A stretch of DNA of 64,000 nt from a virus: IMG/VR virus record IMGVR_UViG_3300025849_000009; one strand, given 5' to 3'. The notes beneath the pieces are model-generated. The model worked only from the letters and a program-made list of their open reading frames with translations, had not been told where the DNA came from and did no database searches. Position 1 is the first letter of the stretch. The number at the start of each line of letters is the position of its first letter. Of this stretch, positions 1,304-63,695 are shown in pieces. The translations under genes were made by a program, and so were the position numbers.

Positions 1304-3253
1304 TTACCACGCGTAATCAAATGTTTTGATTTTATTAATTCTATCCTTGATATTCTTAGCATAGTTTTTAGTTTCTCTTTCGTACCAGCTTTCAGCTGCT
1401 CCATATCTTTCTTTAGATTCTTCGCCCTGTCTAACATAATCACAATATCTAGAATAGTCATCTAATATATTTGACATATGATTAGAAGCATCTCTTAATT
1501 TAACAACAGATCCTCTTTTGTTTGTTCCAATCATGATTTCACCATATTTGGTTTTCTCACCTTTTTTTAATCCATTTTGAATTTGTGCAGTTAATTCATC
1601 AATTGCATCTGAGACCATTTTATCTAGTGGCAATTTAGCCGCGTTGTTAGCTAAAATAGTTTCGTATCTTTTCTTATTTTCAGATTTAAAATCATCATGT
1701 GATTTAAATGCTGTAGCTCCTGATTTTGCTGCTGCTCTATCTGCTCTTTTATTTGCAGTTGAATACTTTTGTTGTAATAAATCAACGTTGATAACAATAG
1801 CTCTATCTGCAACTTCTGCAATTCTCTTTACATTGTAGAGTCCAGTTGCATCCCATCCTTTGTATTTTTTACCAATACCTATAGAATCTGTTGGATTATT
1901 ATCTACTGCTTTAAGGTTTCTATCTTTGTTTTTTCCACGGAATCGACTAGTCGATGACCAAACTTGATCATAGAATTTATTACCACCAGAAGTAACAGCT
2001 AATAAATAACCTCCACCTGGGATAGTTTTATTACTTACATATGCATCATAAGGTGCATGTGGATTTTCTTTTTCATTGTCTGAAATATAAAAAATAATAG
2101 AATTTGATTGTTTTGCTTTATATGCAGTTTGTGGGTCTGTAGTAATAAGATCTTCATCTTGTACTTTGTCTAATGCTACTTTAGTAGAACCATAAAATGC
2201 GCTTGCTAAATGTTTGTCTAATTTACCAGATTTTCCTCTAAATAATTCAGCAAGTCTTTGTGAACCGAATGCTTCATTAACTGTTGATTCGTTTAAAGAG
2301 TTAACAAACTCGCTAAATGATTCGTAAATAAATGTTGTTTTGTTTTTTGGTGTTTCCATTTTTATATTTGATGTATTTTCTTTTACTAATTTTGGATTTT
2401 TATTCAAAAGCTCTTCCATGTCTATTTCAGTTAATGACATAAAACTATTTTCTCCATACTTTTTAGATAATCTATCTGCTTTTTTAATGTCTATTACTTT
2501 AGATAAATCGTCATAATCTAAAGTTGCTACTCCAAATTCTCCAAACATTTCTTCCGCCATTGCGTTTGCAACTTTAAAAGGAGTTGCCTTCTCGTTAAGT
2601 GTAACCGCTGTTGATGGAATGATTGATTTTAATATTCTCATACCTGTTTTAGAAAGAGAGATACCATCTTCACTTACGTTAAAATACGCTGTGTTTCTTC
2701 TTAACCATCTTGTAGAATCAGTTGTCATTTCTTTAACAATACTTTTAAATTCTTCTTGGGAAATTTTACCATCTTTAACAGCTTCTAATACTTTATTTCT
2801 AATTTTAGCAGCTTTACCAACAGATTTTGCTGGATGGTTTTCAGTATACTTTCTTTTAACAATTATATTTCTTTCTTCTATAGATTCATTAACCTCACCA
2901 TCTTCAAATTTCCAGGTGTAACCTTTACCTTCTGCACCCTTTTTACTTAAAATCCCATACATACCTTTTTTAAAACTATCAAAGAAAAGGGCAGAATCAG
3001 CTTCTTTTTTTGTATATTTTCTTGCCTCTTTATCGCTATTATGCCCCTGGATGTATGCTCCGTCTTGCCATGTTAGTAAAATGCCAGTGATAGCGAAATC
3101 TCCTTCCCATCGTATATCTTTAACTCGGGCCCATTCCATTTCAAAGTCTGAAAATTGAGATTTGCCATATTTTAATGCTTCTTCTTTTGTTTTAAAGAAA
3201 TTGAACTGCTCACTATCTTTAGTTTTTTTACTTACGTAGTATATCTTTGCCAT
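1304..3253 (-). CDS. Multi-module hypothetical protein, putative internal head polyprotein
   Basis: 649 aa; segments delimited by EVNESIEE, TLNE, LVKE, and an internal FIYESFSEFVNSLNESTVNE motif. Confidence 0.6.
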   Translation of the reverse strand: MAKIYYVSKKTKDSEQFNFFKTKEEALKYGKSQFSDFEMEWARVKDIRWEGDFAITGILLTWQDGAYIQGHNSDKEARKYTKKEADSALFFDSFKKGMYGILSKKGAEGKGYTWKFEDGEVNESIEERNIIVKRKYTENHPAKSVGKAAKIRNKVLEAVKDGKISQEEFKSIVKEMTTDSTRWLRRNTAYFNVSEDGISLSKTGMRILKSIIPSTAVTLNEKATPFKVANAMAEEMFGEFGVATLDYDDLSKVIDIKKADRLSKKYGENSFMSLTEIDMEELLNKNPKLVKENTSNIKMETPKNKTTFIYESFSEFVNSLNESTVNEAFGSQRLAELFRGKSGKLDKHLASAFYGSTKVALDKVQDEDLITTDPQTAYKAKQSNSIIFYISDNEKENPHAPYDAYVSNKTIPGGGYLLAVTSGGNKFYDQVWSSTSRFRGKNKDRNLKAVDNNPTDSIGIGKKYKGWDATGLYNVKRIAEVADRAIVINVDLLQQKYSTANKRADRAAAKSGATAFKSHDDFKSENKKRYETILANNAAKLPLDKMVSDAIDELTAQIQNGLKKGEKTKYGEIMIGTNKRGSVVKLRDASNHMSNILDDYSRYCDYVRQGEESKERYGAAESWYERETKNYAKNIKDRINKIKTFDYAW

Positions 3254-3278: not shown

Positions 3279-5126
3279 CTATATATTCTTAATAAATTGA
3301 TCGAATGTTAGTGTTGCTATTTCAGTCTCTTCTAAAACTCCCATAGAATCTTCTAATTTAGATTTTAATTCATTATACATATCATGTATCGGTTTTGGTG
3401 TTAGCTTCTTAAATAGCTTCTCATCACCATCTAACATTGCATTTCTTACTTGTGTTGCTGATATATTCTTGCCAGTTCTTGGTATTTCATAAAGTCCAAA
3501 ATCAGTTCTAACTCCAAGATCTTCTCTATATTCTGGTTTATCTACTTGAAATCCATAAGTTTTCATTCTGTCACTTCCGGTTCCCCATAACACTGGTTCG
3601 TATTTTGGCCTCATTGCATTAAACATAGTGTCAATACCGCCCGTTGGAATTACAAAAACTTCTTCAATTGGATATTTAGATTTTAATCTATTAATCATTG
3701 CAACTTGAGTGTCCTCATCATAAGGTCTTTTAAATGCATCTTCTTTTTTCTTTTTCTTAGCCTTTACTAATAAGATTACGACCGGGTGACCATTTTGTTT
3801 ATGAATAGTTTCAACTACTTTAGCATGGCCCAACGTAAAAGGCTGAAATCTACCAACAAACATATTAACTAATTTCTTACCATGTTCTGGGTAATCTACC
3901 TTTAATGCTTCTAAAACAGGAGATTCATTATATTGTAATTTTTGATTTAACAGATATGACTTAAAATTAAGAACATCATTTTCATTTGTTTTTGCCATTA
4001 CTATTGCATCTATACTATCAACTATTTCATTGATCTGCGACATTAAATCTTTATTAATAATATCTGTTTCTTTGTTTCTCTTTTTTCTAAAACTACCCAA
4101 TGCTATTTTATACAATTCTGATAAAATGTCATTCTGTATTAATGATAGTGTTTTTTCATTTGTAATAAAAACTGGATTTAATTTAAAACTTTTGTTTTCT
4201 GAAAAATCCGCAGAATTAAAACTAGCTCCTACATATTTAGAAGCATTCTTTTCAATGTATGCATTAAAGATGTGTGAAATTAATTCAATGTATCGTTCTG
4301 CTGAATCTTCTGATTCTAAAGAAATTTCTTCAAGATTAAACTCTGTAATATACTCTACTAAATCTAATATTGCAATCTGATACATGTCAGATGGCTCTCT
4401 TTTTTTGGCATCCTTCCTGTCAAATCTTTCAAGTTTAAAACTTTTTTGATTTTTACCTTCATAGAAGTTTACTATTAAACCATCTATATCATTATCTAAA
4501 TTAGAATTTAACGTTGGATTATTAAGACCTATGTTAAATATATTAAATATAGCTCTTGTAAAAGATTGATCTTTGAATTTGATTTTAAAATCAGAATCAG
4601 AAAGTTCTAGTAATCTAATTAAGTCATCTTTTTGATTTGATTGTAAAACTCCTTGAAATATAACCGGAGGTTTTTGAACACCTAATAATTCTGACCACTT
4701 ATTTAAGACCTGTGGATCTCTAATAACTTTTTTGATTTGTGTGGGATTTTTAGGATTTAATATTTGTATATGTGTTAGTATTAAGTGATTTTTAGGAAGA
4801 CTTTCATATTCGATATCTACTGTCTTATTGTCAATCATGTAGTCAAATCCGAATTTCCAATCATGTGGCATATCTTCTTTTACATCTTTAGGAATAGCTT
4901 TAAAGTAATTGATACCATTTTCATAGTATCTTACCATAGTTCTATCTACTTTATCCATTTTATGTTTAGAACCACTTTTAAAATATTCATAACCAGTACT
5001 AGTGCTTTTAACATGAAACGAAGATGCTTGTATTTTTTCTGATACAACACATGTTAATTTCAACATTGAATTAAAATCATTAATGTTGGTTGATTGAAAA
5101 TATGTTCTTAAATTTTGTAATGCCAT
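3279..5126 (-). CDS. Degenerate RNA-ligase-fold domain fused to HIGH-superfamily (cytidylyltransferase/NMNAT-like) nucleotidyltransferase
   Basis: C-terminal GRFQPFTLGH, GSDR and ISATQVR motifs; N-terminal EKIQA, LGVQKPPVIFQG, DGLIV and SFKL resemble covalent nucleotidyltransferase motifs I/IV/V. Confidence 0.7.
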   Translation of the reverse strand: MALQNLRTYFQSTNINDFNSMLKLTCVVSEKIQASSFHVKSTSTGYEYFKSGSKHKMDKVDRTMVRYYENGINYFKAIPKDVKEDMPHDWKFGFDYMIDNKTVDIEYESLPKNHLILTHIQILNPKNPTQIKKVIRDPQVLNKWSELLGVQKPPVIFQGVLQSNQKDDLIRLLELSDSDFKIKFKDQSFTRAIFNIFNIGLNNPTLNSNLDNDIDGLIVNFYEGKNQKSFKLERFDRKDAKKREPSDMYQIAILDLVEYITEFNLEEISLESEDSAERYIELISHIFNAYIEKNASKYVGASFNSADFSENKSFKLNPVFITNEKTLSLIQNDILSELYKIALGSFRKKRNKETDIINKDLMSQINEIVDSIDAIVMAKTNENDVLNFKSYLLNQKLQYNESPVLEALKVDYPEHGKKLVNMFVGRFQPFTLGHAKVVETIHKQNGHPVVILLVKAKKKKKEDAFKRPYDEDTQVAMINRLKSKYPIEEVFVIPTGGIDTMFNAMRPKYEPVLWGTGSDRMKTYGFQVDKPEYREDLGVRTDFGLYEIPRTGKNISATQVRNAMLDGDEKLFKKLTPKPIHDMYNELKSKLEDSMGVLEETEIATLTFDQFIKNI

Positions 5127-6409
5127 TATCTTCCGTATTTTATGATACCCATTAATTGATTAATGGCTGCAAACGTACCTGTTAATTTCATTGTTTTTCC
5201 TTTGTACACAAAAACTATTCCTTCAGTTGGTATAATAGATTCTATTCCTCCAATTCTGTCTAACCTAGCAAGTTCAGCTTCAACCTTTGCGATCTGAGCT
5301 GCACCTCCTGTTTTCTTAATACCTTCAGCTTCTGTTCTTATTTGATCGTGCAACCTTTGCATTTCAGCATCTGGGTTTGCTGCAACAAAATTAGAAGCAT
5401 TCTTAAGGATAATAGAACCCAATTCTAAGAATAAATCCTCAAATGGTCTAATGTTTTCCTTGTATTTTTTCTTAACATCTTCTTTATCAAATTTCTTAAT
5501 AAGAGATGCTTTATCTTTACCTAAATCTTTGTCTAATGATCTTAAGTTTAGTGTCTTTTTATCACCATACGCCCATCTTAAAAGAAGTCCTTCTTTATGA
5601 TCTTGTTCTAAATCAGAAAAGTTTGTATCAATAGTTTCTCTCCACCACATTTCGTGATATCTTGAAACTTGATCATCATCTGATAAACCATAACGATCTC
5701 TTAGTGATTCTACTTGTTTGATAAATTTAGCTTTGTTCTTTTCAAAATCTAAATCTTTTCCTATTTTAATAACTTGAGGTGGAATTACTGTAAATGTTTT
5801 GCCAACATTAATTTTAAGATCTTGCATTGCTTTAGCGATTGATCTTGCTGGTTTGTTATCATCTCCAATAGTATTACCTTCACCGTCAGTTTTCTTTATA
5901 CCATGAAATTGAATAACATCACGATCATAATAGATTACATTAGGATTCTTAGAGTAAATTAACTCCATATTCATAAAGTTTTTACCATTATCAAAAACTT
6001 CTAAATCTTTAGGGGATAATTTATTTAACGAGCTTGCTAAATCTTCTGCAGCAAATTGAAAAGTATCTTGTACTAATGGACTAGCATGTCCTTCAAACTT
6101 ATTCTTAAAAGTAGCAAGGTCCATTGGATTTGCTAATTCAGTTTTATTTCTGGCAAATTTTACTTCTCCATCTTGAACTGTTGCAAATACATTTTGACCG
6201 TCAGTTTTTTCAGTTGCTTCTTCTTCGAAGTTTAGTTCACCATATAATCCTGCTTCAATAATTTTCTTAAAATCACTAAATGTTAAATCTTTCTCATCAA
6301 ATGGATGTGACATGTGACCTGCTGCACCACCTTCTAAAATAAGAGATTCTGGTACACTAATATGTAGTCGTTCAGTTATAAATTCATTAAAATTAGTAAA
6401 GATCTTCAT
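5126..6409 (-). CDS. ATP-dependent ligase-fold protein (DUF6267-like), putative head-packaged
   Basis: EGGAAGHMSHPFD, TEKTDGQN (motif I KxDG), EGIVF (motif IV), MKLTG (motif V); N-terminal MKIFTNFNEFITE. Confidence 0.65.
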   Translation of the reverse strand: MKIFTNFNEFITERLHISVPESLILEGGAAGHMSHPFDEKDLTFSDFKKIIEAGLYGELNFEEEATEKTDGQNVFATVQDGEVKFARNKTELANPMDLATFKNKFEGHASPLVQDTFQFAAEDLASSLNKLSPKDLEVFDNGKNFMNMELIYSKNPNVIYYDRDVIQFHGIKKTDGEGNTIGDDNKPARSIAKAMQDLKINVGKTFTVIPPQVIKIGKDLDFEKNKAKFIKQVESLRDRYGLSDDDQVSRYHEMWWRETIDTNFSDLEQDHKEGLLLRWAYGDKKTLNLRSLDKDLGKDKASLIKKFDKEDVKKKYKENIRPFEDLFLELGSIILKNASNFVAANPDAEMQRLHDQIRTEAEGIKKTGGAAQIAKVEAELARLDRIGGIESIIPTEGIVFVYKGKTMKLTGTFAAINQLMGIIKYGR

Positions 6410-6429: not shown

Positions 6430-8538
6430 TTATTGTCCCAATGAGCTAGTTAACATACCAACTGCAGTACCATAATCTCCATCTGCTTTAGATAAAATAC
6501 CGTCTATAACTTTTTTAGCTTTGGTTTTGTCAAAATCCTCTCCAAATGCTTTTTGCAAAACAGTTATCGCATATTCTTCAAATTCTTCATCCGAATTAAC
6601 TTCTGATTCAGTAACTACTGATTCAAAGTAATCTTCATAATCAGAAACTGAATCCGGACCCCATACATCAGCTAAGACCTTTTCAATATCTTTTCTTTTA
6701 CCAGTTAATTTAACTTCAGGGTAACCATGGTCTCCTTCTTCTTTTTCAACTTCCATTTCAACCCTGTTCTTCTTTAAAGATTGAACTAAAGGTTTGAATT
6801 TAGTTGGGTGGATGCCATCGTCGTTTCCAAATTCTATACCTGAAAGAGAGGCTTCAGTAACTACTGATTCATTGTATAAATGAACATAGTTTTTATTTTT
6901 CTCAGAATAAACTGATTTGATTTCAAATTCTTTTTGTCCTTTTGTATAATATGCTTTAAAGAATAAATTTTCATCAAACTCTCCAAAGAAATGATCTGAT
7001 TTACCGATAAAGAATTCAGCGTTTGGATAAATTTCAAGAACCTCTTCTTTTGTAGTTGCCTTTAAAACCGCGTTATCAAAGTCTTTTACGAATTTAGCTT
7101 CTGTGACTGATTCACTTAATGAATTTCTTAGACCACAGTGTGTACATTCTACTGTTCCATCTTTATCAATTTGCTTATATAGGTGTCCTTTTCTATTAGT
7201 ACACTTAGGTTCGTCTGATTCAGTAACTACTGATTCTTCAATAGTAGCCTCATTATAACTTACAATATCAGAATATTCAATTTCATGTTCTTCTCCGTCT
7301 TGGTCCAATGCAAATATTGTTTTATCTCCCCACATGTCATCATTACTATCGTTGCCATTACCATATGCATAAATAACATACTCTTGTCCGTTTCCTAATT
7401 GAATCATACCATCATCAGCTTTCATAGCTTTCATTAAAGACTTTTTATTATATGATTTCTCATTAAGCGCATCTCCTTCGTCATATGCAAATGACTCAAA
7501 CATATTAAATGCATTTAGTAAAGCTTGACCTGATGCTTCTTCTTTAATACTCTCTAAATAAAGAGCAGTACCTTCAACAATCCCAATTCCTGACCAACCA
7601 GCTGCATTTGCAAGATCACTATAGTGTTTGTCTAAAATTCTTTTTGTAGTAGTAGCACCGATTGTTAAAAAGTGATTACCTAAACCTGCTACTTTTAATT
7701 CAAATGAACCTATTCTACCTTTAATGTTCTTAGATATAACTTTTTCTCTATGAAAGTTAGCATCTGTCATTGCTTCTTCGAAAAGATACTTAATACAACC
7801 TAATGTGCCTACTTTATCCATTGCACCAAAATCTGTTAGTTTCTTAGTAAATAAATTTTTATAGACGGTTAAAACTTTTTTTGCATCTCTTTTATATTGA
7901 ACTGAAATAGCTTCATTTACTGAAGTAGTTAAAGATTCAAATGCTGGATAAACATCATCATATCCTTTACCGTAAATATCTGCCATTAACCATTCTTTAT
8001 TAGCTTCATCCCATAAATATACAAATTCGGCACCGCCATCATTTGCAACATCTCTTAAATATTTAGATATATTGGCAACTTTACCTTTAGATGCTGTAAA
8101 GTTTCCATAATAATTCATCCCTGTTGGATCAGCTTCTAAACCTGAATTATCTCCATTTTTAAGAACAATGTTTAGCGGTGAGCCACCCTTTAAATATGTT
8201 TTCTTAATAAGCGGTAACACGTTTTCAGGATATGAATCATAATGCATGTATACAGAAGTGATATTTCCTCTTTTGTCAATTTTACCAATTTGTCCTCTAG
8301 TTCCTTCTTCGATTAAAACAACAGCTTCATTAATCTCAGCTCCTCTTAATTTAGTAAAAAACTCAATTCTTTGCTCTTCGGTTAATTCTTTGATAGAAGT
8401 AACTTTAAATTCACTAAGTAAATTTTTATACGTTTCTGCTTCAGTAGTTCTTTTAGTAGAATTTTCTTCTTCTATTTGCCTAGATCTATTGATTTGCGAT
8501 TCAGTTGAAAACTGATCAAAAGATTTTAATTTATGCAT
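6430..8538 (-). CDS. Modular polyprotein-like internal head protein
   Basis: N-terminal MHKLKSFDQFSTE; repeated ESVVTE/ESVTE/VNE/LNE linkers; contains a GTR...YxHYDSYP phage domain and a C-x5-H...CxxC Zn-ribbon-like module. Confidence 0.6.
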   Translation of the reverse strand: MHKLKSFDQFSTESQINRSRQIEEENSTKRTTEAETYKNLLSEFKVTSIKELTEEQRIEFFTKLRGAEINEAVVLIEEGTRGQIGKIDKRGNITSVYMHYDSYPENVLPLIKKTYLKGGSPLNIVLKNGDNSGLEADPTGMNYYGNFTASKGKVANISKYLRDVANDGGAEFVYLWDEANKEWLMADIYGKGYDDVYPAFESLTTSVNEAISVQYKRDAKKVLTVYKNLFTKKLTDFGAMDKVGTLGCIKYLFEEAMTDANFHREKVISKNIKGRIGSFELKVAGLGNHFLTIGATTTKRILDKHYSDLANAAGWSGIGIVEGTALYLESIKEEASGQALLNAFNMFESFAYDEGDALNEKSYNKKSLMKAMKADDGMIQLGNGQEYVIYAYGNGNDSNDDMWGDKTIFALDQDGEEHEIEYSDIVSYNEATIEESVVTESDEPKCTNRKGHLYKQIDKDGTVECTHCGLRNSLSESVTEAKFVKDFDNAVLKATTKEEVLEIYPNAEFFIGKSDHFFGEFDENLFFKAYYTKGQKEFEIKSVYSEKNKNYVHLYNESVVTEASLSGIEFGNDDGIHPTKFKPLVQSLKKNRVEMEVEKEEGDHGYPEVKLTGKRKDIEKVLADVWGPDSVSDYEDYFESVVTESEVNSDEEFEEYAITVLQKAFGEDFDKTKAKKVIDGILSKADGDYGTAVGMLTSSLGQ
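6607..7236 (-). repeat. Three identical dispersed 18-nt repeats TTCAGTAACTACTGATTC (encode ESVVTE on minus strand)
   Basis: Exact copies at 6607-6624, 6853-6870 and 7219-7236. Confidence 0.9.
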
Positions 8539-13781: not shown

Positions 13782-14150
13782 TTACAGTTTTTTACCTAGA
13801 GCAGCACCTAATGCGGCGCCTACAAGTCTAGAAGTTAGTAAATCATAAAATACACCTTTTTGGATACCAAGAACTTTTGCTAGCATTTTACCAATAGATT
13901 TCCCTAAAGCAAAACCTGTAAGTCCACCAATAATCGATCCAAAGAAACCTTCATTAGTCATCTCTTCATTAAGTCTCTCAATATCATAAGAACCATCTTC
14001 GTTTTGATATTCTGAGGCAAAAGATTCTAACGCCGCATCTATTTTCTCTTCTAACTCTGGAGTCCAAGTTTCTTGAAGTCCCTCATTAATAAGTTCTAAA
14101 TCCTGTTCGTTAACAGCGTTTTCAATTAAATATGTATTAAATGTTTTCAT
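13782..14150 (-). CDS. Acidic pro-region plus C-terminal glycine-zipper amphipathic peptide; putative head-packaged membrane-active protein
   Basis: MKTFNTYLIE start; VNE/INE/LQE/LNE/TNE sites; last 55 aa GFFGSIIGGLTGFALGKS...VGAALGAALGKKL. Confidence 0.55.
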   Translation of the reverse strand: MKTFNTYLIENAVNEQDLELINEGLQETWTPELEEKIDAALESFASEYQNEDGSYDIERLNEEMTNEGFFGSIIGGLTGFALGKSIGKMLAKVLGIQKGVFYDLLTSRLVGAALGAALGKKL

Positions 14151-14154
14151 GTAT

Positions 14155-14162
14155 TATATATC
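14155..14162 (-). promoter_or_regulatory. Late-promoter motif GATATATA, 4 nt upstream of ATG
   Basis: Minus strand GATATATAATAC-ATG; motif recurs before many structural genes. Confidence 0.7.
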
Positions 14163-17624: not shown

Positions 17625-19184
17625 TTAGTATATGCCTTCGTCTCCAAATTCGTCGTCGCCGGTCCCTTCAGAATCTTTTTCAAGATCTTCAACATTGTGT
17701 ACAACTATACCATTTGCAAAGTATAAATCACATTCTTCAACATTGAACGAATAGGTTGTAAATCTTTCAGGAACTGTTACCAGTTCTATAGATGTAATAT
17801 CTACCCATATATTGTCTTCGTTTAACAGCCAATCTGAATTAACAATATCTCTCACTTGTTTAAAGTAAATATCGCCTACCATGTCTTTTACTAGAACTGG
17901 ATGCTCTTCTGTTATTTTTAATAATCCATTATTAAAGTTGTAATATTTATCAAAATCCAAGACATTGATGCCTGTAACGACAGTGCTTGTATATTCAGGT
18001 TCTAGAGTTTCTTCTCTTCTTTTCCATTCTTGCCATTCTCCGTCCAAACTAAATCCATCGAAGTTAATAGATAATAGGTCATCCCCTATAACTATATTCT
18101 CTACCGCTTTAGTTTCTCCATTGGCTAATGTAAGTAATTCTCCAGCTACGTGACATCCGCCACCGCCACCGCCACCAAAGCCGCCGCCACATAATGCAGG
18201 GCTATCGTATGTACAGTCAAATGGTGTTTGTGAATCACCTATATACTGAGTACCAGTAAATTCGTAAATTGTTCCGGATTGGTTAGGGCAATTAGTAGTT
18301 CCAGCAATCTTGTTTGATAGAATATTAACACTTCTTAAAATTTTAGCTGTACCTCCATCACATGGCGTAGCTGATCTAAAATAAAAAGTTTGTGATGTTG
18401 CAGATGGAACTGGTGTCGGCATCGCAGTTGGAGCTGGCCCTGAGCCACTTCCACTTCCACTAGTTGGAGATGGAGCCGGAGTTGGGGTTCTATTGCTTCC
18501 CGAATTAGCTTCGAGTACACAGTACCATGTGTCGGATGTGCCATAAGGTGCATTTACAGTACAGTCAACATTCATATTACTTACAGGTGAAAAAGTTTTA
18601 GTAAACCTATACGTTCCACTAAATACATTAGAGTCTTGTGTTACAGTTGGACCAGATAAGTTTGTTCCACTAACACCCGTAGTACTAAAATTACTAGGTG
18701 CCGCTGGACTAGTCTGACCATCAGCTACAATTGTATATGCTACATCAGCACCAAGTGACTGAGGTGTAAATACAAATCTATTACCAGATGTTGTATTAGT
18801 TGCGAACGTGAACGCTGGGGTTGGACCTAACGTTGGTTGTGCTGTTGGAACTGGGGTTGGTTGTGCTGTTGGAACTGGGGTTGGTTGTGCTGTTGGAACT
18901 GGCGTTGCAGTCGGAACCGAAGTTGGGACTGGCGTTGCAGTCGGATCAGGTACACCCGCACCTTCAGCTTGATTTACAGTAATAGTGTCAACCGTTGTTG
19001 AATTAGCATGTCTAACAGTGAGTGTTGCGCTTCGCGCAGCACCGTTGTTTTGTTCTAGTGTAATTGTCCAGTCGTCAGAGTTAACAGAAACTCTTGTTAT
19101 AGTAATCCAATTAGGAGTAGCATCCCATGAATAGGATGTACTTACTGGTGTAATTGAGACAGTTCTTGTATAATCGTAGCTCAT
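17625..19184 (-). CDS. Putative fibre/adhesin: BACON-like domain, PT repeats, C-terminal Hint (intein-like) domain
   Basis: PNWITI...QNNGAARSATLTV...ITVNQ (BACON-like); (PTAQPTPV)n; poly-Gly then CHVAGELLTLANG...YFANGIVVHN. Confidence 0.75.
   Translation of the reverse strand: MSYDYTRTVSITPVSTSYSWDATPNWITITRVSVNSDDWTITLEQNNGAARSATLTVRHANSTTVDTITVNQAEGAGVPDPTATPVPTSVPTATPVPTAQPTPVPTAQPTPVPTAQPTLGPTPAFTFATNTTSGNRFVFTPQSLGADVAYTIVADGQTSPAAPSNFSTTGVSGTNLSGPTVTQDSNVFSGTYRFTKTFSPVSNMNVDCTVNAPYGTSDTWYCVLEANSGSNRTPTPAPSPTSGSGSGSGPAPTAMPTPVPSATSQTFYFRSATPCDGGTAKILRSVNILSNKIAGTTNCPNQSGTIYEFTGTQYIGDSQTPFDCTYDSPALCGGGFGGGGGGGCHVAGELLTLANGETKAVENIVIGDDLLSINFDGFSLDGEWQEWKRREETLEPEYTSTVVTGINVLDFDKYYNFNNGLLKITEEHPVLVKDMVGDIYFKQVRDIVNSDWLLNEDNIWVDITSIELVTVPERFTTYSFNVEECDLYFANGIVVHNVEDLEKDSEGTGDDEFGDEGIY
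17694..18155 (-). other. Hint/BIL autoprocessing domain (154 aa, no homing endonuclease)
   Basis: Block A Cys1 (CHVAG), block B ITEEHPV, block F YSFNVE, block G VVHN. Confidence 0.85.
18832..18953 (-). repeat. 24-nt tandem repeats encoding PTAQPTPV/PTATPV
   Basis: gttggttgtgctgttggaactggg repeated. Confidence 0.9.
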
Positions 19185-19202
19185 TGTTTTGTTTATTTTT
19201 TA

Positions 19203-19210
19203 TATATATC
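19203..19210 (-). promoter_or_regulatory. Late-promoter motif GATATATA
   Basis: Intergenic, 18 nt upstream of the ATG at 19184. Confidence 0.65.
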
Positions 19211-19231
19211 TTACTTATCGTGTTTGTACTT

Positions 19232-20623
19232 TTAATAGTTTAAAAATCCTGTTCCAGTTCCTGAACTAGTTCCTCCACTTCCACCTGATTGAGATGGTGT
19301 TGGTTGTGCTGTTGGAATTGGACCATCACCTGTTCCTGAACCTGTTCCCGAACCTGTTCCGCTAGTCGGGACAGGTGTTGGTTGTGCTGTTGGAATTGGA
19401 CCATCACCTGTTCCTGAACCTGTTCCCGAACCTGTTCCGCTAGTCGGGACAGGTGTTGGTTGTGCTGTTGGAATTGGACCTGAACCACTTCCACTTCCAC
19501 TAGTTGGAACTGGTGTTGGCTGTGCCGTTGGAACTGGCGTTGGTTGTGCTGTTGGACTTGGACCTGAACCACTTCCACTTCCACTAGTTGGAACTGGGGT
19601 TGGTTGTGCTGTTGGAACTGGGGTTGCAGTCGGATCAGGTACATTTGAATTTGGTGACCCGTCACTGTTTGCATCAATGTCTCCACCTCCAATAGAAATG
19701 GTGTCAGTTATTACTGGACTTCCATCAGCATATGCATTAATGTCTCCGCCTATAATTCCAATACTATCTGCTACTCCGCTACCACAATCTGTACATAATT
19801 CTCTCCATTCCGGTGAACCACCATTATAATAATAAGCTTCAGCAATATCTAAATCACTATTAAATCTTATCATACCTACTTGTGGATTTACTGGTCTTTG
19901 TCCAGTTCCACCATAAGGCAATCTTACATAACCTTTAAATTCGGCATTTATATCTACATCTAATATACCACTACCTGAAGCTTCTAAACTAAGGTTGTTT
20001 GATCCAGTCGTTTTAATTGCTACACCTTCACCTTGAAAATATGCATTAGAACTAGTAGCAACCAAAGATATTTTATTGGTAGTTGCACCAAACTCTATAT
20101 TATTACTACCAAAATTATTTTTAAAAGCAAATCTTTTATAAGCTCCGCTTTCTTCACTAGTTAATACTAAACCATGAATTGAGTCATGAAACAATTTTAG
20201 ATAATTTGCAAAAACACTATCAGTTGCTATTGTCAATCTTGCATTTGATGAAACATCGCCGTCATTAGAATCTTCTTCAAATGTAGAATCTCCTAGCCAA
20301 ATTATAGGAAGTTGTAAATCAGTTCCTCTTTTAGGTTTTAGAATAGTAACCTCATTTTGTCCATCTGAATTAGCATCTAATTCAACTTTGTACCATGGAC
20401 TATCAGTTGCTCCTGAATCTCCTTTTAGACCAGTATTACCAATCTCACCTTTTTCACCTTTTTGTCCTGTAGAACCAACTTGACCTTGATCTCCTTTTTG
20501 CCCTTTAGGACCAACAGGTCCACCTCCGTTTGCCAATATCTGGTCAAAGTTATAGTTGATTTTTTCAAACTTAATAGAGTCTGAATCACTCGGGTGTAGT
20601 ATCTCTTGAATGTTAATTGCCAT
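19232..20623 (-). CDS. Collagen-like tail fibre protein with PT/GS low-complexity tail
   Basis: N-terminal KINYNF motif, 13 G-X-Y triplets, RLPYGGTGQRP...GMIRFNSD fibre motif, C-terminal PTAQPTPV/GTGS repeats. Confidence 0.75.
   Translation of the reverse strand: MAINIQEILHPSDSDSIKFEKINYNFDQILANGGGPVGPKGQKGDQGQVGSTGQKGEKGEIGNTGLKGDSGATDSPWYKVELDANSDGQNEVTILKPKRGTDLQLPIIWLGDSTFEEDSNDGDVSSNARLTIATDSVFANYLKLFHDSIHGLVLTSEESGAYKRFAFKNNFGSNNIEFGATTNKISLVATSSNAYFQGEGVAIKTTGSNNLSLEASGSGILDVDINAEFKGYVRLPYGGTGQRPVNPQVGMIRFNSDLDIAEAYYYNGGSPEWRELCTDCGSGVADSIGIIGGDINAYADGSPVITDTISIGGGDIDANSDGSPNSNVPDPTATPVPTAQPTPVPTSGSGSGSGPSPTAQPTPVPTAQPTPVPTSGSGSGSGPIPTAQPTPVPTSGTGSGTGSGTGDGPIPTAQPTPVPTSGTGSGTGSGTGDGPIPTAQPTPSQSGGSGGTSSGTGTGFLNY
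19250..19642 (-). repeat. Nested tandem repeats (PTAQPTPVPT / SGTGSGTGSGTGDG / SGSGSGSG)
   Basis: Includes an exact duplication with 78-nt period near 19295-19480. Confidence 0.9.
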
Positions 20624-58189: not shown

Positions 58190-58696
58190 TTATTTTGCTT
58201 CGTACATTTCTTTAAGCTCATCAATCTTTTTATTGTAAGCTTCTTTGATACCGTTTAGACATGCTTCGTACATTTCTTTAGTAAGTCCTTCTCCATGTAT
58301 CTCAGCGTTCGCATCTTCTGCTGACTGAGCAACTAATGTTGCAGCTAATGCTGCGTTTTCTTTAAGGTAAGACTCAACTGTGTGGTCAGGATAGTCATCT
58401 CCTTCATAGTCACATGCTTCTTTGACAGCACACTCATATGCTTCTGTCATCATTTCTGAAACTGCCTTTACAACCTCTTCCTCTTTTTCAACTTCTTCAG
58501 CCTCTTCAACGTCTTCAGTTTCTTCTTCAGTTTCAGTTTCTTCTTCAGTTTCTTTTTCGTCTTCGCCCTCTTTTTCTACTTCGATTTCATAATCTCCGTC
58601 TACTTTAATTTCGATTTCGTCTTCAGCTAACTTATCTGTATCCGCTAGATTTTTATTAGCAGCATACTCTTCGAATGATAATATTTTTTTGTCCAT
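58190..58696 (-). CDS. Highly acidic protein, putative prohead core/internal protein
   Basis: MDKKILSFEEY start; Glu-rich ETEEETETEEETE; late motif at 58716-58723. Confidence 0.6.
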   Translation of the reverse strand: MDKKILSFEEYAANKNLADTDKLAEDEIEIKVDGDYEIEVEKEGEDEKETEEETETEEETEDVEEAEEVEKEEEVVKAVSEMMTEAYECAVKEACDYEGDDYPDHTVESYLKENAALAATLVAQSAEDANAEIHGEGLTKEMYEACLNGIKEAYNKKIDELKEMYEAK

Positions 58697-58731
58697 GTTA
58701 TGTTGTTATTTTTATTATATATCTTAGTATA

Positions 58732-59214
58732 TTATAGTGTTTCTATTTTATTGTTTTTCATCCAAGTTGATAATTCACTTTCTGCTCTATCAAAAAGTCT
58801 ATTTCTGTTAATACTTAATCCAAAATTATTAAAGTATTCTTTCATTAAATAGTATGCAGGTTCTACTGATTCTCCATTAGCAACCATATCACTCACATGT
58901 TTTGAAACTTCATATGCATAATACGCGGCTTTTTCTGCCATAGGGTTTGTCATTGCATTATAAAAATCTCCACCGTAAAATTTACCTACAGTTTCTCCAA
59001 ACTTTTGTTTCATTTCTATCCATGAAATCCCTTCTAATCCAATCCATAATTTAGCTTGGACCGCCTTAGTGTCTTTTCTAATAAAACCTTCTTTTGCCAT
59101 ACCCTTAGTTATCTCTAGGATTTTCTTAGGAATTGGTAATTTGCCATTATCTTTTTCCCATGCTTTGATTTCTTTATCATTTACAAATGATTCAAATAAT
59201 TTTATGTATTTCAT
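58732..59214 (-). CDS. Hypothetical protein with capsid-targeting-like N-terminus
   Basis: MKYIKLFESFVND. Confidence 0.65.
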   Translation of the reverse strand: MKYIKLFESFVNDKEIKAWEKDNGKLPIPKKILEITKGMAKEGFIRKDTKAVQAKLWIGLEGISWIEMKQKFGETVGKFYGGDFYNAMTNPMAEKAAYYAYEVSKHVSDMVANGESVEPAYYLMKEYFNNFGLSINRNRLFDRAESELSTWMKNNKIETL

Positions 59215-59220
59215 ATCGAT

Positions 59221-59907
59221 TTATGCCTTAGACCTTTTTTTTACTGTTTTGAGTTTCGCCTTTAGGGCTAATTGGTTTTTTTGAACAGCTATTTTCATGC
59301 CATCAACAGAAGTTTGTTGCATTTTTGATTTTAATAATGCAGTTTCTATTTTATCAGCAGGTTCTTTTGATTTATCTTTAGATTTTTTATTTATCAGTTC
59401 AACAAAATCTTTGTTCTTCTTAGATAAACCTTTTTGTTTTTTAGTAAGATCTTTTATTTTTTGTTTATCGCTTTTTGGTTTACTCTTCTTTTTCTCTAGA
59501 ATAAATTTATCTAAAGATAAAACGTTAACCATTTCTTCAACTTTACCCATCTTTTTTGATAGTTCCATTGCCCAATCAACTCCTTCGTCTCCGCCCCATA
59601 TTAACCAAGAAACATAACCTTTATCTTTCCATGGAGTTTCTTTTAATTCGGGCTTAATAGATGAATTTTTTCTATGTCTATTAAATGAAGCCATACGCTT
59701 TACTGTATCACCAGATATGTTTTCACCTTTAGCTAATTGATGTGCTCTTGCCCAACCAACTGCAGTTCCAGCATCCACTTCTTCACGACCATGTTTTTCT
59801 TTCCAATCGATAGCCATTTGAGCATTTTTCTTTGCTGCTTCTGGATAATCGTTGTAAGTATCATCATCTCTGACTTCAGATTCTAAAAACAATTTAATAT
59901 ACTTCAT
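59221..59907 (-). CDS. Conserved-looking phage protein with capsid-targeting-like N-terminus and Lys-rich tail
   Basis: MKYIKLFLESE; YNDYP...GTAVGWARAHQLA...TVKRMASF..RH...GYVSWLIWGG; second motif VLSLDKFILE before the basic tail. Confidence 0.65.
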   Translation of the reverse strand: MKYIKLFLESEVRDDDTYNDYPEAAKKNAQMAIDWKEKHGREEVDAGTAVGWARAHQLAKGENISGDTVKRMASFNRHRKNSSIKPELKETPWKDKGYVSWLIWGGDEGVDWAMELSKKMGKVEEMVNVLSLDKFILEKKKSKPKSDKQKIKDLTKKQKGLSKKNKDFVELINKKSKDKSKEPADKIETALLKSKMQQTSVDGMKIAVQKNQLALKAKLKTVKKRSKA

Positions 59908-59910
59908 GTA

Positions 59911-62439
59911 TTATATATTGTTATTTCTATGTGATTGATCAAAGTGATTCTGTTCCTTTAGCTCTTTATCATGTCCTTCGTCTCTAACTTCTTTAGCAAC
60001 ATCTTTGTCAGCATCTCCCCAAGTTCCTTTACCTTTTGTTAAAAATGCATTTACTCGAGCGTATCCCCATTGTTGTTCAGTTGCACCCGGCCTATGACCA
60101 GTTTTCCATGCCGCCATTCCTCTTCTCATAATAATTCTAATAATTCCAATTGGTACACCGGTTTCTTCTGATTTTGTCTTAAGTGCTTTTTCAATTTTAG
60201 GATCACTGATTGGACCTCTATCACCTTCAACCTTTTCTAAAATATCACATTCTGCTAATTCTTCTTGAGCAAACTCATTATATTCTTTAGCCCACGCTTT
60301 CCATTTAGATGGTCTAGCATAATCAGATAAAATCATATCGATAGCATCTGGTTGAGAAATCTGAGAATTAATATCATTCCATACTTTATCTGCTAACCAT
60401 CTACCAGCTTTTGCGTTTAAATAAGATAGGGCTCCAGCGTCTGAGAATTTCCAACTCTTAGTTAGTATTCCCCACACATCGTTCCATATTTCTTCAATCT
60501 CATAAGAGTCCATATGAACATCTAAAGTTCCCCAAAATCCATACATTTGATTGATGTCATCTGTATTATATTGTAACTTTTTGCCGAATTTAAAATTAGG
60601 CACTCTACTTTCTGTAATTAAATCTTCATTTAATGTTTTTAATAAAGAATTAAAAAATCTAGGTGATAAAGACTCTACGAATCCTCTTTCTTCAGCATCG
60701 TTCTGTATCCACTCTTTGTCTTTAGAAGAAAGCTTTTCATAATCTTTATTAAATCTATGATGCGATATTAAATCATAGATATCTTCTAAATTATAATTAC
60801 CTTCATTGGCCTTTCTCATGTCGATCCAAACTCTAATAATATCTGCATAATCTTTGGCAGTTAATTTAGTTTTATTTCCATGAGTTGTTCTATCATTAAG
60901 ATCGAACATCTGCTTAGCAAACTTATCGATATTACCTGATTTAAAATATAACGTAGCTCTTTGTCTTCCATTATCTAATAATTCAAAAGTTTCTTCTTTT
61001 TCATCATGTGGATCTAATCTCCAACCAGCTGAATGATTAACTCTAATATCTAAACCACTAGAATTACTATCAACAACTACAGTCCAATGACCAGAAGACT
61101 GATATGTTTTTCCTTTAGCATACTTGATTTTCTCTTCGTTAACTAATGATTCATATACTAAATATCCATTAGATCTAGCAAAAACATTAGACTCATCGTT
61201 CCACTGTTCTTTAGTACTACTTATTGAAATTTGTATATAATTCTTTGCACCTAAATCTGGCTGTATAAGAAAAACTAAATCATCACTACCAACATAAAGA
61301 TCCCAATTTCTACCTGATTTTTGAGTTAGTAATAATTGAAAATTAGAATCTAATTCCTTTTTAAGTTCTCTTGTATTTGGAAAGCTTCCACGACCCGTAG
61401 AAAAACCATCTCTGTATTCTAGTTCATCTCCAAAAGAAAGTTGATCTACGAATTTTTGTAATCTTTCTTCTTCATCATTCTCAAAATAAAACTCATTAAC
61501 TACTGATTCAACACTAGTTGCTTCATTGGCAGATTCTAAAATAATAGAATTTAGTCTTACTTCTTTTTGAAATCTACCACTACGTACATCGTCAGTTACT
61601 TCTAACTTAACACCATACATTGCTGTTAATTTTACTTTTACTTTTTTACCATTATGTTCCGCTTCAAATTCTTTAAATGCATTTGCTTGTCGACCATAAT
61701 CTGTAATTTCATATTCTCCATCTTCTGTATCAAATATAGTACCTATGCTAAGTTTCCTAAGAATCTTTGCACCCATCATTGATATTTTAGAAGAAGATAT
61801 GGTTTTTCTTTCAGTAACTAATGATTCTAATATCTTTGAATTTTTATCTATTGAAAAAATAGTTTCTTTTTTTCTTATAATAGAAATTCCCTTGAATGTC
61901 GATTTGTTAAAATATTTGTTACTTCTGTTCTCATATCTTTTTAATGAAGAGTGATCTGCAAACACACCGCCTGGAATGTTGTATATGATAGTTCCCTTTG
62001 GTAACACTATATTTGTATAATTGCCAATTTGAACACCTTCAACATCTTTTTTTAATTCATATTTTCTATTATCTAAATTATATGTACCTCCACTCATAGT
62101 GCCTGAGTTTGGTCTAAATGTTGCTTCATCTAGCGACTCGTCTTTTTTATCACCATATAATTCATGATATTTCTTTACATGTTTAGATGTTTTAACTTCA
62201 CCCTTTTCTCTAGCTTCCTTATCACCTGGCATTTCTTTATATGCGCTGGAATCATCGTCAGCCATGTCTGATTGTTTTTTTATCTGATCTTTTTTATCTT
62301 CAATCTCATTATCGTCTAACCCTCTATGATATGGTTTTGGACCTGGTTTTGCTTCTGACAAATAATATGCGGTATACTCTTCTCTTGTCATGTTTAGTTT
62401 TGCAGCTTGCACTCCTAGGAAATCGTTAAAATTGCTCAT
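59911..62439 (-). CDS. Modular polyprotein-like internal head protein with DUF5824-like terminal domains
   Basis: Likely start MSNFNDFL at 62439; linkers ESLDE, ESLVTE, ESVVNE, ESLVNE, LNEDLITE; C-terminal RRGMAAWKTGHRPGATEQQWGYARVNAF. Confidence 0.65.
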   Translation of the reverse strand: MSNFNDFLGVQAAKLNMTREEYTAYYLSEAKPGPKPYHRGLDDNEIEDKKDQIKKQSDMADDDSSAYKEMPGDKEAREKGEVKTSKHVKKYHELYGDKKDESLDEATFRPNSGTMSGGTYNLDNRKYELKKDVEGVQIGNYTNIVLPKGTIIYNIPGGVFADHSSLKRYENRSNKYFNKSTFKGISIIRKKETIFSIDKNSKILESLVTERKTISSSKISMMGAKILRKLSIGTIFDTEDGEYEITDYGRQANAFKEFEAEHNGKKVKVKLTAMYGVKLEVTDDVRSGRFQKEVRLNSIILESANEATSVESVVNEFYFENDEEERLQKFVDQLSFGDELEYRDGFSTGRGSFPNTRELKKELDSNFQLLLTQKSGRNWDLYVGSDDLVFLIQPDLGAKNYIQISISSTKEQWNDESNVFARSNGYLVYESLVNEEKIKYAKGKTYQSSGHWTVVVDSNSSGLDIRVNHSAGWRLDPHDEKEETFELLDNGRQRATLYFKSGNIDKFAKQMFDLNDRTTHGNKTKLTAKDYADIIRVWIDMRKANEGNYNLEDIYDLISHHRFNKDYEKLSSKDKEWIQNDAEERGFVESLSPRFFNSLLKTLNEDLITESRVPNFKFGKKLQYNTDDINQMYGFWGTLDVHMDSYEIEEIWNDVWGILTKSWKFSDAGALSYLNAKAGRWLADKVWNDINSQISQPDAIDMILSDYARPSKWKAWAKEYNEFAQEELAECDILEKVEGDRGPISDPKIEKALKTKSEETGVPIGIIRIIMRRGMAAWKTGHRPGATEQQWGYARVNAFLTKGKGTWGDADKDVAKEVRDEGHDKELKEQNHFDQSHRNNNI

Positions 62440-62449
62440 GTTGTTTTTA

Positions 62450-62905
62450 TTATTTTGGTAATCTAACCATAGTATCTTTAGTTTGGCTCTTATCCGTATT
62501 CTTGACAAAATCAAAGTTTTTATAAAACTTATTTAATCTAGAAATAGAAGTTGCTCCAAAATCTTTAGAAGGTGTTAGATATATTTTTAAATTTTGTGTG
62601 TCAGCATAGTCAGTAATTCTTGACATAACCTTAGAACCGATCCCTTTATCACGATCCTCTTTTTTTACTTTTATTTTACTAAGTTGTAGGTACTTACCAT
62701 TATCATATAAATCTAATTCTATATTGAATTGATCTTCTAATTCTTGTAAGATGAATTGTTCTCCTAAAATAGGTGTATTATCATGATTACATTTATGACA
62801 AATAAACACATCGTGTCCACCCTCTTCTATTTCCCAAGACCAACCACAGTTATCACAAGATACTTTGTTTGCCGTAAACTCCTCGAATAGTTTTATATAT
62901 TTCAT
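62450..62905 (-). CDS. Zn-ribbon plus GNAT acetyltransferase, capsid-targeting-like N-terminus
   Basis: MKYIKLFEEF; CDNC...CHKC; acetyl-CoA motif RDKGIGS; FYKNFDF. Confidence 0.8.
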   Translation of the reverse strand: MKYIKLFEEFTANKVSCDNCGWSWEIEEGGHDVFICHKCNHDNTPILGEQFILQELEDQFNIELDLYDNGKYLQLSKIKVKKEDRDKGIGSKVMSRITDYADTQNLKIYLTPSKDFGATSISRLNKFYKNFDFVKNTDKSQTKDTMVRLPK

Positions 62906-62906
62906 A

Positions 62907-63605
62907 TTAAAATTTCGGTATACCTCCTATTTTTGCTGCTCTTCGTCTCCAGAGATCTAATACTTGTTCTCTTTCTTCGTCATTAATAACACCTTGTTCC
63001 TGTTGTGTATCTAAATATCTACCAACAGTATCGCTCATGTTTTCCTTTCTCTTCTTAGCTTCATATCTTAATCCTTGTAAATTAGCATCCACTTCTTTAG
63101 GTAGCATTAGATACTGAGATTTTGGTAAAAGTCCCATTTTTATATAGGCTCTTAGTTCACTATCATCTTCATTAGGTTTACCTTTTCTATAATTTCCGGT
63201 GTCAATTCCGTCTTGTGTAATATGTTCCATTTCATGACGAACTACATCTGCTAAATGAAAATATACCATTGACCATTCTCCTGGAATCCACTCAGGATTT
63301 AAAGCAAAGTCTATAATAATATAAGGTGTTTGAAAGTCACCGTGATCATCATCGTCTCTACCATCTGCACCTGTTGAATCTAATACTTGAAATCCTTCAT
63401 ATTTTTTATCAATATGAATAGTAGCCTCAATATCAAATTCTAAACCTCTCTCTTCAATTTGGTCTCCATAATTTATAGTAGCGTTCCCGCCTTTATATGA
63501 TTTAACCCATTTATTGAATATAGCTTTAGTTAATTTGGAAGCTAATCCATCATATGCAGATCTTCCTTCACCAATAAAACTTTCATATGTTCTAATATGT
63601 TTCAT
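62907..63605 (-). CDS. Putative zincin metallopeptidase, capsid-targeting-like N-terminus
   Basis: MKHIRTYESFIGE; HEMEH plus downstream EVDA third-ligand motif. Confidence 0.7.
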   Translation of the reverse strand: MKHIRTYESFIGEGRSAYDGLASKLTKAIFNKWVKSYKGGNATINYGDQIEERGLEFDIEATIHIDKKYEGFQVLDSTGADGRDDDDHGDFQTPYIIIDFALNPEWIPGEWSMVYFHLADVVRHEMEHITQDGIDTGNYRKGKPNEDDSELRAYIKMGLLPKSQYLMLPKEVDANLQGLRYEAKKRKENMSDTVGRYLDTQQEQGVINDEEREQVLDLWRRRAAKIGGIPKF

Positions 63606-63609
63606 GTAT

Positions 63610-63617
63610 TATATATC
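63610..63617 (-). promoter_or_regulatory. Late-promoter motif GATATATA, 4 nt upstream of ATG
   Basis: GATATATAATAC-ATG, identical to the 14150 site. Confidence 0.7.
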
Positions 63618-63675: not shown

Positions 63676-63695
63676 CATGGTTAGTTGAGACTTTA

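Follow-up and report, generated by a model that had tools for sequence, protein, structure and literature searches.

The window analysed here is a 64,000-nucleotide stretch of viral DNA (IMG/VR virus record IMGVR_UViG_3300025849_000009), which carries large-myovirus baseplate genes and replication genes (helicases, primase, SSB). On its minus strand, an open reading frame (ORF) with an ATG at 62439 and a stop at 59911–59913 encodes a protein of 842 amino acids (aa; P0001), hereafter called the polyprotein, whose sequence suggests a chain of small cargo proteins destined for the phage head. An alternative, longer TTG start at 62514 overlapped the upstream gene; orthologues shared the MSNFND start instead. 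Plus-strand ORFs beneath the gene (63–69 aa, low complexity) were without support.

The polyprotein contained a repeated connector of the form E-S-(V/L)-V-(T/N)-E, encoded by 18 nucleotides (nt). The reference 18-mer GAATCAGTAGTTACTGAA (ESVVTE) was present in exact copies at 6607, 6853 and 7219, all within the gene at 6430–8538. The initial annotation, which was made from the letters alone, had listed near-copies of it in the polyprotein gene, and the coordinates, mismatch counts and peptides were all correct: one mismatch at 61810–61827 (ESLVTE), two at 61492–61509 (ESVVNE) and three at 61135–61152 (ESLVNE). With the 61810 copy as the query and up to three mismatches, seven sites were found against 0.17 expected, a number that none of 100 shuffles reached, and all seven were in the coding frame. 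The segments between the linkers measured 98, 100 and 113 aa; the initial annotation had given about 100–120 aa. The tripeptide [LIV][NT]E occurred five times in the 842-aa protein, exclusively at junctions and never within a folded module (mean of 1.49 in the shuffled protein, P 0.0115). The connector motif also ended an N-terminal tag, MK.IKLFE.F(V/I).E, of stand-alone versions of the modules, and connector and tag were spaced like the capsid-targeting sequence of T4 (aromatic, x, x, aromatic, hydrophobic, x, Glu). Elsewhere in the window, an ORF at 1304–3253 (minus, 649 aa) contained ESTVNE at 2273–2290; since it shared modules with the arrays P0203, P0229 and P0127, it is probably a third array.

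Read from its N-terminus, with all features on the minus strand, the polyprotein began with a leader (62353–62439, aa 1–29, MSNFNDFLG ... YYLSE), a weak variant of the MK.IKLFE.F..E tag that ended in L-S-E and was modelled with helices at 2–14 and 19–27. A similar start, M(I)SNF(D/N)DFLNE, immediately preceded the core in the short homologues P0006, P0008 and P0009. The following N-part (62140–62352, aa 30–100, KPGP ... DDD..AYKEMPGD ... KTSKHVKKYHELYG) was charged and probably disordered, with a predicted local distance difference test (pLDDT) score of 39–76. It was found in 61 proteins, nearly always directly behind the tag or an x-E. Linker 0 (62122–62139, aa 101–106, ESLDEA) was degenerate; its position was occupied by ESVVTE in homologue L018 and by ESVDEA in the orthologues, and module A began directly after it in 83 homologues. 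Module A (61828–62121, aa 107–204) was beta-rich (pLDDT 78–96) and occurred in 86 proteins of 90–1531 aa. Linker 1 (61810–61827, ESLVTE, GAATCATTAGTTACTGAA), with a pLDDT below 50 at residues 206–208, separated it from module B (61510–61809, aa 211–310), which was also beta-rich (pLDDT 92–98) and occurred in 25 proteins, as well as in L018, L019 and L020.

Linker 2 (61492–61509, ESVVNE) came next, and the match of orthologue L002 to module C began at 61510. Module C itself (61153–61491, aa 317–429) was modelled at a pLDDT of 26–55 from a thin alignment and was rare, being found in five proteins only, each time within an array. At linker 3 (61135–61152, ESLVNE), the homology to L001 and L002 resumed at 61152. 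Module D (60802–61134, aa 436–546; pLDDT 93–97) ended in RKANE and was found in 40 proteins. The short helical piece D2 (60628–60801, aa 547–604) occurred in 10 proteins, usually just upstream of the N-part. Linker 4 (60610–60627, EDLITE) was preceded by LNE, and module E began after it in L001, L002, L005 and P0126. Module E (60235–60609, aa 611–735) was helical, ended in DILE and was present in 26 proteins, mostly immediately upstream of the core; it matched phrog_8020 at aa 630–692. The C-terminal core (59914–60234, aa 736–842), a basic four-helix unit, matched Pfam PF19141 (DUF5824) with residues 754–813 at profile positions 61–125 (56.7 bits against a cut-off of 25, E 3.5e-15). DUF5824 was the sole Pfam domain found in the polyprotein, and no polyvalent-protein domain was among the matches.

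An AlphaFold2 model of the 842-aa protein was built on a 64-sequence alignment. Modules A, B and D were confident (pLDDT mostly above 90), as was the core (86–92), at a predicted template modelling score (pTM) of 0.39. Confidence fell below 50 at residues 206–208, 305–331, 393–435, 603–649 and 731–742. The initial annotation had named one integrated fold across the linkers as the outcome that would speak against its view; instead A, B, D and the core were modelled as separate domains with a pLDDT below 50 at the connectors, and in the model the domains had no fixed mutual arrangement. Since module E was mostly lost from the alignment (A1) and module C had few homologues, the low confidence of both is uninformative, and that at 600–740 says nothing on the fold of E. 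Foldseek of the model against the PDB returned nothing at E 0.001 or better, a PDB profile search by sequence nothing below E 0.2, and an Atlas search DUF5824 clusters only. VIA-align of the model of the short homologue P0003 gave a best Z of 5.9; several chains of sigma region 2 scored Z 4–5, below the meaningful level for helical bundles, and for this reason no fold or function is given to the core.

An exhaustive HMMER search with residues 105–745 as the query yielded 233 representative proteins (E 1e-10 or better for 195), and in these single modules lay at many differing positions in proteins of 56–1531 aa. Modules A, B, D, E and the core recurred alone or in other arrays among approximately 270 metagenomic proteins. 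The stand-alone forms consisted of the tag followed by the module, for A (P0223, P0270, P0271, P0260), B (P0180, P0207) and D (P0202, P0249, P0263). The initial annotation had proposed to look for the inter-linker segments in other contexts; modules occurred both alone behind a tag and as parts of numerous other arrays. They are separate, mobile and independent units. Each module's start (N, A, B, C, D, E, core) was then projected onto the approximately 270 homologues and the 14 upstream residues were read, which almost always ended in hydrophobic-x-(N/T/D)-E. Modules in first position were preceded by the tag MKH.KLFE.F(V/I)NE and internal ones by ES(V)V(N/T)E. Since cutting at the tag end or at the connector would leave an identical mature N-terminus, cleavage is favoured over a role as a plain spacer.

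Exchange of modules between the polyprotein gene and the gene at 6430–8538 had also been proposed. Modules of both were found side by side in P0129, which contained A, then a module of the 6430–8538 gene (its residues 357–438, 73% identical) and then D, and in P0248, where A was paired with the same module. The two loci of the window had no module in common, and direct sharing between them was rejected (blastp, nothing below E 1); the arrays of other phages support the idea, but the two loci themselves gave no sign of direct exchange. Module A had no match in cultured phages. In a tblastn search of the whole protein, the core or the E-plus-core region only was matched, in HTVC008M, Melnitz phages and C48C1, and a single 156-bp match came from a megablast comparison of 20 kb of window sequence with cultured phages. 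The nearest record, a 24-kb fragment (G001), had no S77 (T4-type prohead protease) gene and no match to the polyprotein gene.

Comparison with close relatives located the exchange points. The records G002 and G003 were species-level relatives, with helicase and baseplate wedge protein 99% identical to those of the window, and their versions of the polyprotein were 940 and 986 aa long. The ends (residues 1–213 and 430–842) were 91% identical and the middles differed; L001, L002 and L003 were orthologues at this identity. The DNA homology of L001 ran from 64000 to 61810, where connector 1 has its last base, and resumed at 61152, where connector 3 begins. L002 had kept module C (61510–61135) and had an extra 95-aa module with the 18-mer, as a copy of linker 3, on both sides. 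Related phages gain, lose and replace modules exactly at the connector. The DNA of module D was 92% identical to L004 over 61154–60802, ending at the last base of RKANE, compared with 73–81% for the rest of L004, which suggests a recent transfer of a single module between lineages.

The connectors were conserved as DNA. In a set of 23 six-residue connectors from the window and nine loci, copies that are not independent of one another, serine was encoded by TCA in 20 of 23 cases (background 0.30) and never by AGY, the first valine by GTA in 17 of 17 (background 0.41), the second valine by GTT in 23 of 23 (background 0.47) and threonine by ACT in 12 of 13 (background 0.48). An identical 18-mer occurred in L017 and L020, from genomes whose baseplate wedge proteins were only 54% and 33% identical to that of the window. 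A five-residue version, ESVNE, was encoded uniformly per lineage (GAATCAGTAAACGAA in the group of the complete genome G005, GAATCAGTTAATGAA twice in L004), the pattern expected from homogenisation by recombination. Unlike the connectors, the N-terminal tags varied freely in their codons; the tag of the gene at 58732–59214 aligned with connectors 1 and 3 at 74–76% over 34 nt.

The initial annotation had regarded the two ends of the polyprotein as the two parts of a DUF5824-like protein, a conserved scaffold that had accumulated an insert array. Both the N segment (KTSKHVKKY...) and the C segment (RRGMAAW..GHRPGA..) were indeed present in short homologues of 180 aa, among them P0003, P0011 and P0089, but Pfam matched the C segment only, and aa 1–106 had no Pfam match even at E 1. 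The DUF5824 core had 1077 short homologues, and the order of N-part and core was counted in the 120 best short homologues. Many of these consisted of the tag and the core alone (P0006, P0014, P0021, P0114). The N-part was present in 26 of the 120, placed before the core in 21 and after it in five, and in the 21 forms with the N-part first a connector-like piece (ESFVNE, ESVDEA, ESIDEA) always stood in between. In the model of P0003 (182 aa), residues 90–180 formed the core as a confident four-helix unit (pLDDT 80–93) and the N-part was of low confidence.

Among 148 proteins selected by insert modules only, 15 had the N-part, 17 the core and 12 both, with N-part, inserts, E and core as the recurring order. 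P0125 had kept the N end and carried a different module at its C-terminal end. In the cultured pelagiphage HTVC008M, gp130 ("cytidyltransferase") had the N-part and the core at its end. N-part and core are separate modules; they frequently occur together, and their order is sometimes reversed. The scaffold with an insert array therefore stands as a recurring arrangement, but its ends are not halves of one domain; the comparison with short homologues that had been suggested as a check went against that part of the claim, with a linker already between the parts, reversed orders and core-only forms. The simplest history would be that modules were inserted at a connector which already divided N-part and core in a short ancestor.

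Links to the phage head came from relatives of the window. In G006, whose baseplate wedge protein was 54% identical, an S77 protease was fused to an acidic scaffold and followed by the Gp23 capsid protein, and G005 also had S77 and Gp23 genes. RVNE ended the protease domain in 41 of 41 distinct sequences of the G006 clade, a hydrophobic-x-E site lay 25–28 aa before the scaffold C-terminus in 45 of 45 (ESVNE in G006), and KLYE preceded the mature capsid protein in 50 of 50. The connector motif was present in only eight ORFs of the 176-kb G006 contig, namely seven tagged or cargo-like ones and the protease-scaffold. In G005, which is complete at 276 kb, the head cluster contained arrays with modules A and B on either side of the protease. 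Leaders of the L005/L006 type (also P0151, P0193, P0197 and P0198; first 45 residues) copied the N-arm of the capsid protein: the match GMG.VSLPS ... GSGD covered 14 of 21 residues (E 1.7e-6), and a lysine-rich stretch and an internal tag followed it. As a separate observation on the capsid region (L037–L116), the ORF upstream of the capsid gene encoded protease and scaffold as one protein of 590–830 aa throughout the clade, and the conserved hydrophobic-x-E lay 25–28 aa ahead of a basic peptide at the C-terminus, whose last residues were K(R/K)F(K/N)K.

In phage T4, capsid targeting depends on residues 4 and 7 of the targeting sequence and processing on residues 8 and 10 (PMC9026906), and the sites of the protease gp21 in Alt are ITE-6 and LTE-619 (PMC5694885). 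The records of T4 IPII and IPIII start with MKTYQEFIAE. The full tag motif was found on genes neighbouring the polyprotein gene and on the stand-alone module homologues. One of these neighbours (59221–59907, minus) had a core domain at aa 9–125 (YPEAAKKNA ... VKRMASF) with matches in 69 records. Among haloarchaeal tailed viruses and Roseobacter phages, the domain fell in genes annotated as prohead protease, as portal/head morphogenesis protein or as major capsid protein.

The polyprotein gene belonged to a unit of six tagged genes (58190–63605, minus), which comprised 62907–63605, 62450–62905, the polyprotein gene, 59221–59907, 58732–59214 and 58190–58696. Hairpins with a T-run, resembling terminators, bracketed the six genes at 63676–63647 and 58162–58132 (both minus; 13 and 14 pairs); the second hairpin included the ATG of the next gene. 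The gene at 62450–62905 had weak Pfam matches to a zinc ribbon plus GNAT. The tagged 232-aa product of 62907–63605 (minus) contained an HEMEH motif (HExxH) and is a possible zincin peptidase among the cargo genes, although it had no Pfam match at E 0.01 and its Atlas leads (LPD23, SprT-like) scored only 0.86, below the reliable level. The polyprotein gene, 59221–59907 and 58732–59214 shared one frame, with gaps of a stop and one codon (59908–59913) and of a stop and two codons (59215–59223). L018 (1240 aa) and L004 (1016 aa) were single polyproteins in which homologues of 62450, 59221 and 58732 had been joined to the N-part, core, B or D seen here, and internal (M/L)KYIK.LNE tags marked the joints. 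These fusions show that the gene boundaries in the tagged cluster are fluid: the array and the adjoining tagged genes fuse and split between phages.

Other observations concern tagged genes and the window at large. An exact start context, ATATATAATAC-ATG, was shared by three tagged genes (14148–14161, 59905–59918 and 63603–63616, minus). A search with up to two mismatches gave 12 matches against 3.1 expected, and the element may be a shared late-promoter-like or translation-start element. Promoter-like matches in the region were at chance level (33 against 31.6). The ORF at 5126–6409 (minus, 427 aa) started with MKIFTNFNEFITE, the closest match in the window to the T4 capsid-targeting sequence, and had no Pfam or PHROG match. 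The guanine-plus-cytosine content was 0.43 at 18001–20000, compared with about 0.31 elsewhere, over the ORFs 17625–19184 and 19232–20623, which had long alternative-frame ORFs.

On this comparative evidence, we consider it rather probable that the gene, from an uncultured marine T4-like phage, encodes a modular head-cargo polyprotein that is loaded into the capsid and released by a protease. About eight small proteins of 8–15 kDa each (N-part, A, B, C, D, D2, E and core) would be translated as one 97-kDa chain, which would enter the prohead core through its leader or connector motifs. The T4-type (S77) prohead protease of the phage would then cut after the last Glu of each connector, and the freed modules would remain with the DNA and pass into the host at infection, as T4 IPI–III and Alt do. 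The 18-nt connector might also serve as a short in-frame homology patch at which the recombination system of the phage swaps modules. We are more tentative, and put the chances slightly short of even, about a broader form of this proposal, in which the connector would be a dual-purpose in-frame joint, protease site and homology patch at once, and in which a common library of injected proteins would be assembled combinatorially across phages. A system of this kind would parallel integron cassettes or exon shuffling, but within a coding frame, and the tagged genes that stand alone next to the array would represent the same beads, either not yet fused or already split off.

The evidence for cleavage of the polyprotein by the head protease is circumstantial, and several observations weigh against the cargo proposal. 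There were no head genes within the window, and for this reason the protease rule was read from relatives and not from this phage; the polyprotein gene adjoined a helicase and an ORF resembling dCMP deaminase by eye, not head genes. Its own N-terminus, MSNFNDFLGVQ, had F4, F7 and L8 and lacked Glu at position 10, making it a weak tag, and the next hydrophobic-x-E was the LSE at 27–29. Some junctions in the polyprotein were degenerate (ESLDEA, RKANE, DILE). The inferred capsid-protein site, L-Y-E, fits the general hydrophobic-x-Glu rule and not V-(N/T)-E. Foldseek matches to DUF5824-like regions inside proteins named prohead protease and XkdF were weak (E 0.3). Finally, conservation of the connector at the codon level goes beyond what a protease site alone explains.

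This last point would be explained by a chain that is never cut. The polyprotein would then be a multidomain protein of the polyvalent type, working intact in the capsid or in the cell, with the connector as flexible spacer and recombination joint. Codon conservation and base-exact breakpoints require only a role of the DNA, polyvalent proteins of 2–15 domains are known, and some of them, such as the N4 virion RNA polymerase, are packaged unprocessed (PMC5512222). An invariant Glu that follows a hydrophobic residue by two positions is, however, more than a spacer requires, nor need a spacer match the motif that ends the removable tags of stand-alone forms, and the same motif was found at the expected processing points of the protease-scaffold fusions. 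With the polyprotein also devoid of any Pfam polyvalent-protein domain, we regard an uncut protein as unlikely.

Less probable still is cleavage by another enzyme in the cytoplasm or after injection, be it the tagged HExxH protein of 62907–63605, a phage ClpP or a host enzyme. The HExxH protein carries the same tag and lies in the same six-gene unit, its weak Atlas leads included LPD23 and SprT-like zincins (0.86), and among polyvalent proteins the processing domain predicted most often is a zincin peptidase (PMC5512222). Against this, it had no Pfam match at E 0.01 and its Atlas scores were below the reliable level, cutting after Glu at hydrophobic-x-E is a documented habit of T4-type head proteases (PMC9026906, PMC5694885), and the motif was conserved within the S77 protease's own polypeptide in relatives.

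The fixed synonymous codons could alternatively mean that the 18-mer acts mainly on RNA or translation, as a pause site, a nuclease site or a trap of off-frame stops. By hand count of the 23 connectors, TAG was present in frame +1 in 22 and TAA or TGA in frame +2 in 22. These stops are inseparable from the general DNA identity of the connectors; the copies are not independent and the stops may ride on homogenised DNA, and the lineage-specific versions look like concerted evolution. An Rfam search of the region gave no family match. A hairpin role for the 18-mer was rejected on inspection, because the inverted repeat of the ESVVTE form was lost in the ESVVNE form. We consider a role at this level highly improbable. 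Least credible of all, and already contradicted by the evidence, is a strict split model, in which one DUF5824 domain was halved by the inserted array and its halves refold around the inserts: the core does accompany the N-part in 12 of the 15 insert-selected proteins that bear it, and in HTVC008M gp130, but the profile matches the core only, the core is complete by itself in the P0003 model with the N-part at low confidence, forms as short as 180 aa already have a connector between the parts, five of 26 homologues show the opposite order and many forms have only the core.

If the head-cargo proposal is true, it would explain how large marine phages load and rapidly renew the set of proteins they inject: one address tag, one protease rule and one short DNA joint would provide loading, release and frame-safe exchange. 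Modules A, B, D, E, the core and the 59221 domain would be candidates for first-minute takeover of the host or for countering its defences in phages that abound in the ocean, and connector and tag together offer a straightforward sequence criterion by which metagenomes can be searched for such cargo. In the literature, we found no published description of one DNA-conserved standard connector that joins swappable cargo in frame, and no paper in the library searched mentioned DUF5824; searches on capsid-targeted polyproteins of marine T4-like phages led only to work on T4 and on giant phages. The polyprotein scores above the curated cut-off of Pfam PF19141, a family without known function that covers one bead only.

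The closest known system is that of the T4 internal proteins and their capsid-targeting sequence. As in IPI, IPII, IPIII and Alt, small proteins with nothing else in common carry a short tag of the same spacing (Y4, F7, I8, E10 in T4; F, x, x, F, V/I, x, E here), and the end of the tag follows the gp21 rule, hydrophobic-x-Glu. The cargo is likewise diverse and fast-changing, and the phage is of the T4 type, with an S77 protease in its relatives. In contrast to T4, the cargo here is chained in one frame with the site repeated between units, the internal site is conserved as DNA, the tag has an extra MK.IKL stretch, and the system is known from sequences alone. The inner-body and ejection proteins of phiKZ, 201phi2-1 and SPN3US, with their gp175/gp245-type proteases, are functional analogues, since many of these proteins are likewise processed behind the Glu of a three-residue motif, in some chains more than once. 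Their motifs are S/A/G-x-E or A-x-E and serve mostly for propeptide removal, not as uniform connectors between swappable modules, and no DNA-level conservation has been described for them.

Polyvalent proteins, a further functional analogue, combine unrelated domains in one polypeptide, which is predicted to accompany the DNA and to be broken up by proteolysis so that the domains are freed (Iyer et al. 2017, PMC5512222). The polyprotein likewise strings unrelated domains in one chain. In polyvalent proteins, however, zincin or assemblin-like peptidases are embedded in the chain and the domains come from a defined repertoire (among them LPD families, zincin MPTase, ART and ArdC); the polyprotein has neither, and its units are joined by one standard connector. 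At the DNA level, the closest analogue is the shuffling of promoter and stem-loop elements (PeSLs) in T4-type genomes, intergenic elements of about 100 bp that move whole genes (PMC2839356, Arbiol et al. 2010; PMC4122927, Comeau et al. 2014). The joints of the polyprotein lacked the intergenic sigma-70-like promoter and stem-loop of a PeSL. In both cases, short conserved sequences flank cassettes and provide homology for insertion, deletion and replacement between close relatives; unlike a PeSL, the joint described here is an 18-nt coding sequence inside an ORF, at which the frame is kept and protein modules are shuffled within one gene.

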